A stretch of DNA of 64,000 nt from a virus: positions 1 to 64,000 of the IMG/VR virus record IMGVR_UViG_3300008448_000012. One strand, 5' to 3'. How positions within the stretch are numbered: the stretch's first letter is position 1; every line of letters starts with the position of its first letter. Shown one piece after another: positions 21,840-21,855 of the stretch. The translations under genes were made by a program, and so were the position numbers. The notes under the pieces were generated by a model. That model worked only from the letters and a program-made list of their open reading frames with translations. It was not told the origin of the DNA and did no database searches.

Positions 21840-21855
21840 TGTTCCACGTGGAACA
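21840..21855. promoter_or_regulatory. parS: parS centromere-like site
   Basis: Perfect palindrome TGTTCCACGTGGAACA, intergenic. Confidence 0.85.

Follow-up and report, generated by a model that had tools for sequence, protein, structure and literature searches.

Why should a phage carry, directly behind its portal gene, a perfect copy of the sequence on which bacterial chromosomes load ParB? The question is raised by a window of 64,000 nucleotides, the first part of IMG/VR virus record IMGVR_UViG_3300008448_000012, whose complete sequence of 114,470 bp has direct terminal repeats and a completeness rating of 100%. A sequence-only reading of this window had described a perfect palindrome starting at the first base after the portal stop codon, called it a canonical bacterial parS site in a crAss-like phage, and proposed that the phage may borrow the partition machinery of its host. 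Here we analyze where this site comes from, whether it is maintained, and which explanation accounts best for its presence.

The palindrome behind the portal gene matches the chromosomal parS of Bacteroidota

The 16-bp palindrome TGTTCCACGTGGAACA was found exactly at the junction described, with its first base abutting the portal stop TAA (21837-21839), and it agrees with the pattern TGTTNCACGTGNAACA at 16 of 16 positions. It is the sole match to TGTTCCACGTGGAACA at up to three mismatches in the window, where shuffled sequences gave an expectation of 0.13, and when up to two mismatches are allowed it remains the only one in the complete genome of 114,470 bp. The large terminase gene lies upstream of the portal gene, and the capsid block begins downstream of the palindrome (Table 1). 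Portals of Crassvirales, and those of crAss-like phages of Flavobacterium and Cellulophaga, share ∼25% identity with the portal protein, and all of these phages infect Bacteroidota. The label crAss-like, as judged by portal similarity, holds for this genome, although at a distant level only. Further downstream, and after TAATGCTATATTA, the stretch from 21929 to 21990 comprises a conserved CTTTG, 19 nt, TAnnTTTTAC, then AAACCAA, and finally AACTACAT-ATG. This block looks like a Bacteroidota-type promoter followed by a leader, a putative assignment in which the first element resembles the Bacteroidota -33/-7 promoter consensus.

Table 1. Features of the window that bear on the palindrome and its neighbourhood.
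Feature	Coordinates	Strand	Basis or remark
GIY-YIG homing endonuclease	4584-5297	-	Two tandem helix-turn-helix modules matching many HTH families, including HTH_ParB
178-aa accessory protein	9593-10129	-	Without Pfam or PHROG family; >280 metagenomic homologues
Cluster of five G-runs (CTAGGGGG repeats) at a divergent gene-block junction	14306..14470	.	Coincides with the cumulative GC-skew minimum
Portal gene, 862 aa, stop codon abutting the palindrome	19251..21839	+	phrog_6547 portal, E 5.6e-103
Vestigial 24-codon frame of a deleted SPFH/Band-7 gene	21839..21913	+	Comparison with the gene of the relatives
Perfect 16-bp host-type parS palindrome TGTTCCACGTGGAACA	21840..21855	.	Match search; single copy in genome
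Second small hairpin (ACCTT..AAGGT)	21857..21873	+	RNA fold and intergenic comparison
TAATGCTATATTA, upstream of the gene after the portal	21883..21895	+	In every relative inspected; single T-to-C change in one
Promoter-like element (TTTG, 19 nt, TATTTTTA) ahead of the capsid-side gene	21929..21959	+	Kept in all short-gap and long-gap relatives
First capsid-block gene, 416 aa, downstream of the palindrome	21991..23241	+	Gene map
Major head protein, after the 416-aa gene	23268-24821		Gene map
Second GIY-YIG homing endonuclease	45348-45965	+	

The exact 16-mer TGTTCCACGTGGAACA occurs in many bacterial genomes and, among the matches listed, these include Bacteroidales, Bacteroides, Chitinophagaceae, Chitinophaga, Flavobacterium, Algibacter and Daejeonella. 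We then surveyed an even sample of 151 genomes of Bacteroidota, the host phylum of crAss-like phages, using the reversed pattern as a control. Results showed one to five exact matches to TGTTNCACGTGNAACA, usually clustered, in 107 of the 151 genomes, and no match to the reversed pattern in any of them. The Bacteroidota form reads TGTT[C/T]CACGTG[G/A]AACA, the N positions being C/T and G/A in every host site listed. In the two genomes that were inspected for gene context, Flavobacterium soli and Chitinophaga solisilvae, parS sites are found immediately upstream of gidA/mnmG, a gene that classically marks the vicinity of the origin. Because the same 16-mer is the chromosomal parS of Bacteroidota and is found upstream of gidA, these comparisons identify TGTTCCACGTGGAACA as the centromere sequence of the presumed host phylum of the phage, and the description of the palindrome as a canonical bacterial parS therefore stands. 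Metagenome-assembled genome bins with related contigs (Sediminibacterium, Cytophagales, Kapaibacterium, plus clearly wrong bins) give weak host hints only. The IMG/VR records that carry the motif are, among the matches listed, mostly unrelated phages.

The complete phage genome contains no match to ParA or ParB families

The earlier reading had seen no parA or parB gene in the window, and this result could be extended to the full genome: neither ParB_N (PF02195) nor the ParA-type AAA_31 domain (PF13614) has a match at E≤1 anywhere in the complete 114,470 bp. One match to HTH_ParB was considered as a phage ParB and rejected, since it corresponds to a generic helix-turn-helix in the GIY-YIG homing endonuclease encoded at 4584-5297. 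The phage thus lacks the ParA ATPase and the ParB that make up a self-contained parABS cassette, and presents an orphan host-type parS, that is, the host consensus on a phage without ParB.

The motif recurs once per genome in unrelated places

An intact 14-bp core, GTTNCACGTGNAAC, is present in 38 of the 81 records of the phage group, and eight of them match at 16/16. Core-bearing records have one site each, with the single exception of a record that has a second, weaker match. Across related records the motif occupies about seven unrelated contexts: a G-run-rich divergent intergenic region (A1-A4, homologous despite strongly diverged flanks); a second intergenic spot with the identical 16-mer (G007); the major capsid gene, where it is read as M-V-T-R-E-T (15/16); a 415-aa accessory gene (N-V-P-R-E-T); the homologue of window positions 28876-30000 (L-F-H-V-E-Q, 16/16, in a place where relatives read L-x-x-V-E-Q); the SPFH-1 gene, in frame; and a divergent SPFH-2 gene, in another frame (D-V-S-R-G-T, 16/16). 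The capsid-gene version has an A at the N position, unlike every host site listed in the Bacteroidota sample, and the SPFH-2 copy is degenerate in the sister genome L056.

This recurrence was compared with that of control patterns. The reversed pattern gave no match at up to one mismatch in 70 partial records. When all 16-bp palindromic patterns with one free pair were ranked by recurrence, the parS pattern came first, with 5 of the 10 complete genomes (1.1 Mb); among 3,360 composition-matched control palindromes, only 12 that were unrelated to the parS hits scored in these ten genomes, each at no more than two. The site is absent from 5 of 11 complete or near-complete close relatives, a second sample of 45 records centred on a sister subclade (eight of them complete) contained no exact site, and eight named crAss-like phages contained no parS, so that a general Crassvirales feature had to be rejected. 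Site-negative relatives double as controls for the background rate and characterize parS as an accessory, dispensable trait in the phage group. Judged from these comparisons, the conserved feature is the motif, present once per genome and confined to some sublineages, and not its position.

The distance between parS and the cumulative GC-skew minimum is 0.2-9.5 kb in all five parS-positive complete genomes. In the window, the site lies 7.4 kb from the skew minimum and the G-run cluster, the minimum serving as a putative proxy of the origin. In most of the ten complete genomes inspected, the G-run cluster coincides with the cumulative GC-skew minimum, and we regard the cluster as a candidate origin or early-promoter cluster. 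The region homologous to 14306-14470 holds parS in several relatives and none in the window.

A different kind of repetition was seen in two genomes, where four to five copies per genome of TGTTCCACTTGTACCA or of close variants are present (G005, the L052 record, at 40326, 42027, 42117, 42753 and 87696; G010 at 53345 and 53633). These repeats probably represent a repeated coding module distinct from parS.

The window copy is traced to a deleted SPFH/Band-7 gene

Relatives of the window phage were compared using 80 records with 80-93% portal identity. A check for parS at the portal junction of relatives had been proposed in the sequence-only reading, and it returned a negative answer: L016 was the only one of the 80 with an intergenic parS at this place. 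A conserved intergenic site at the portal junction was therefore rejected, as the window and L016 alone have it there. In about 60 of the 80 relatives, a 176-aa gene that starts with TAATGTTTGA lies between the portal gene and the next gene, its ATG overlapping the portal stop (TAATG). The product belongs to the SPFH/Band 7 family (PF01145, E 4e-25). In the nearest relatives of the window, codons 42-49 of this gene are CCA GGG TTC CAC GTG AAA CTT CCA (P-G-F-H-V-K-L-P), so that gGTTCCACGTGAAACt, the 14-bp parS core, lies in frame within the SPFH gene; E-clade SPFH genes carry GGTTYCACGTGAAACT, read as G-F-H-V-K-L.

The window has no SPFH gene, and the gap between the portal gene and the next gene is 155 nt, compared with ∼650 in SPFH-bearing relatives. 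What the window keeps is ATG-TT, then CCACGTG(G)AAC, and then the diverged last SPFH codons and a conserved downstream block. In the resulting vestigial frame, the ATG (21839-21841) overlaps the portal stop, TTC CAC GTG GAA corresponds to codons 44-47 of the relatives, and the 3′ end has diverged. The small hairpin that follows the palindrome is the counterpart of the conserved block AAAC(A/C)TTTTTGRTTAGAG, which in relatives stands 3′ of the SPFH gene or of the portal stop. Alignment with the relatives thus identifies the site at the portal junction as the remnant of a deleted SPFH gene that carried the motif in frame. By the same comparison, the perfect palindrome is built from four pieces. 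The stop/start overlap supplied TGTT, the codons F-H-V the centre, and one A-to-G change the symmetry of the arms, and the final A comes from the 3′ end of the SPFH gene; after the deletion, the motif was kept and completed to 16/16.

L016 holds a remnant of the same kind, ATGTTTCACGTGAAACT, which agrees with the T-variant of its neighbour in the portal tree, L018. Because the 3′ joints of the two remnants differ, and the flanks of the window and of L016 are each nearer to a different SPFH-bearing genome than to each other, two independent SPFH deletions are likely on this comparison; alternatively, a single old deletion may have been followed by recombination. Within a clade in which most members have an SPFH copy, loss of the gene has had three outcomes: L008 has lost both gene and site, L013 has an exact site elsewhere, and the window has the remnant.

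Two further observations concern this junction. L016 has its own GC-rich hairpin (GTGGGCTAAACCCAC) with a T-run right after the portal stop, at 5584-5606 of that record and ahead of its parS remnant. The slot after the portal gene is also a hotspot for cargo in relatives (L013, L022, L035, L059, L066, L069 and L046), which includes SPFH-1, the divergent SPFH-2, a truncated SPFH gene (L066), small ORFs without assigned identity and, in L035 and L059, a 140-aa Cys/His-rich ORF resembling an HNH or endonuclease VII-type nuclease.

Codon conservation points to purifying selection on the motif

The motif-bearing SPFH-1 genes are monophyletic with a support of 0.99, in a tree built without codons 40-51, the motif region, so that the grouping is not circular. 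Within this clade, pairwise nucleotide identity goes down to 74%, 43% of sites are variable and, at third codon positions, 148 of 177 vary. In contrast, variation in the 26 nt that span the motif is restricted to one site, the tolerated N position, and this block is the sole stretch of SPFH-1 with one or no variable site per 16 or 24 nt. By our own estimate, which takes an 84% probability of variation for each third position, the chance of finding seven of eight third positions invariant is ∼2e-5. SPFH-1 genes outside the motif clade encode [IMLV]-H-[FL]-K-I with free codon use and, for this reason, residues of the SPFH-1 protein in the motif clade seem to have been altered (F to V, I to L) so that the codons spell the parS site. 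In addition, deletion of the SPFH gene has spared exactly the motif in two genomes, the window and L016. Recurrence over controls, frozen synonymous sites and retention through gene loss, taken together, argue that the motif is under purifying selection and is maintained in the phage lineage, and that it is not a chance scar.

Alternative explanations for the motif

The strongest alternative is that the palindrome is a deletion scar and nothing else, whose function, if any, would be that of a stem-loop in an intrinsic terminator or of an RNA-end hairpin, and which resembles parS only because of the F-H-V-K codons of the lost gene. That the site arose as a scar is clear from the comparison with SPFH-bearing relatives, and the local sequence offers a candidate terminator: a 6-bp stem with three GC pairs, an ACGT loop and a AACCTTTTTG tail, with a T-run from 4 nt past the stem. 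RNA folding predicted two hairpins with -11 kcal/mol, better than shuffles (z -2.5), and relatives without SPFH have other hairpins at the same place, some of them with compensatory changes (L036/L064/L076; L070/L074/L075/L079). A local hairpin with a T-run could by itself account for a role at this exact spot. However, such a reading leaves unexplained the recurrence of the motif in about seven unrelated contexts, most of them intragenic positions at which termination would be detrimental, as well as the frozen synonymous sites in the SPFH clade and the top rank among all palindromes. Besides, the motif persists in L016, whose portal stop is already followed directly by a GC-rich terminator of its own. 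For these reasons we consider this explanation unlikely as a full account; a secondary terminator role at the portal junction is possible from the predicted fold, and it would not extend to the in-gene copies.

Even less probable is that the motif is the target of another sequence-specific factor, such as a phage regulator, a methyltransferase or a homing endonuclease, instead of host ParB. The genome does encode GIY-YIG endonucleases with helix-turn-helix domains, and the 178-aa gene co-occurs with exact intergenic sites, being present in 4 of 5 genomes with an exact parS and in 1 of 14 without. The AlphaFold model of the 178-aa protein shows a class I SAM-methyltransferase fold (pLDDT 92.7), and this fold, together with the lack of a Pfam or PHROG family, led us to reject the protein as a centromere-binding protein. 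Against a target of this kind, the motif agrees with host parS at each of the 14 fixed positions, and its variation is limited to the positions that also differ among host sites; the targets of endonucleases are expected to be lost and not conserved; and the 178-aa protein has no DNA-reading domain. Carriers of its gene are G000, G004, G007, G009 and one parS-negative genome, and it is found neither in G002 nor in G010, a carrier of the SPFH type. Since the gene is absent from these other parS carriers, we treat its co-occurrence with parS as unexplained and not as causal.

Pure chance, in which a rare 16-mer was met because very many windows were read (∼250,000 were scanned, so that a few exact chance matches are expected), can be dismissed on the shuffle expectation, the palindrome ranking, the lineage-specific recurrence against zero in controls and the nucleotide-level conservation, and the initial claim that an exact intergenic 16-mer is very unlikely by chance gains more strength from recurrence and purifying selection across relatives than it had from the single window.

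Recruitment of host ParB as the probable role of the site

The explanation that we favour, and hold to be probable, is that the palindrome is a working copy of the host parS, kept by selection at one per genome in a freshwater crAss-like group that has no ParA or ParB of its own, and that it recruits host ParB. From the identity with host parS, the enrichment, the purifying selection and the absence of phage partition genes, we infer both the binding of ParB and a physiological outcome. Host ParB, a CTP-dependent clamp, would load at the single site on the injected and circularised phage genome and spread from it as a clamp. Loaded ParB would then tie the phage DNA to the ParABS and SMC systems of the host, through ParA-driven segregation and SMC loading. 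The advantage would most likely be that phage genomes which do not integrate are positioned or inherited when cells divide, in a carrier or phage-plasmid-like state, comparable to what is known for phi29 and Spo0J. Alternatively, the site may titrate ParB or act on the promoter ∼100 nt downstream, benefits that the present data do not separate from this one.

The closest precedents are the virulent Bacillus phages phi29 and Nf. According to PMC2731898, phi29 has five host-type parS sites and its genome is segregated into the prespore with the involvement of Spo0J, and in phi29 and Nf the phage genome is described as becoming trapped in the spore in a Spo0J-dependent manner (Meijer et al. 2005, via PMC2731898). 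As in these phages, in which the host partition protein acts on phage DNA, the window phage bears the parS consensus of the host chromosome without a ParB of its own. The differences are that phi29, which infects a spore former, has a protein-primed genome of 19 kb with five sites, whereas the window phage has one site on a 114-kb genome and a presumed non-sporulating Bacteroidota host. Furthermore, unlike in phi29, the site of the crAss-like group moves between genomes, often sits in frame inside genes and is absent from many relatives.

The site resembles the chromosomal parS/ParB (Spo0J) centromere in its Bacteroidota form by its identical 16 bp, its low copy number and its proximity to the GC-skew minimum, and differs from it in being located on a virus without cis-encoded ParA or ParB. 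Like the parABS systems of P1, P7, N15 and mycobacteriophages, it is a phage-borne, centromere-like site with a possible part in episome inheritance; those cassettes, however, encode their own ParA and ParB and have their own site sequences, while the window phage encodes neither protein. The prototypic crAssphage, Carjivirus communis, has been reported to remain outside the chromosome, at about one copy per cell, in a paper in which a search by partition terms found no partition system (PMC10983915). The window phage is similar in being a crAss-type phage with, in its case, possible extrachromosomal persistence. The two differ in that the window portal is only ∼25% identical to those of Crassvirales and that the eight named crAss-like genomes, NC_024711 not being among them, have no parS.

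A literature search found no report of parS on crAss-type phages. What is new here, on the comparative evidence, is a single, relocating and often in-frame parS with direct evidence of selection in a crAss-like lineage. CrAss-type phages coexist with their hosts for long periods without integration, and to our knowledge no partition mechanism has been described for them. We put forward tentatively, as a possibility that goes well beyond the recruitment of ParB, that some freshwater crAss-like phages persist as low-copy episomes in dividing Bacteroidota and are partitioned by host ParABS via a single orphan parS, for which selection would rewrite codons, outlive the carrier gene and replace a lost site elsewhere. 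If true, this would provide a concrete mechanism for the non-lysogenic persistence long noted in crAss-type phages. A selected host centromere site on a crAss-like phage also offers a testable handle on this persistence, consisting of one 16-mer, or of host ParB. More generally, these genomes show how a docking site between DNA and protein can arise within a reading frame, persist after its carrier gene is gone and change its place in a viral genome.
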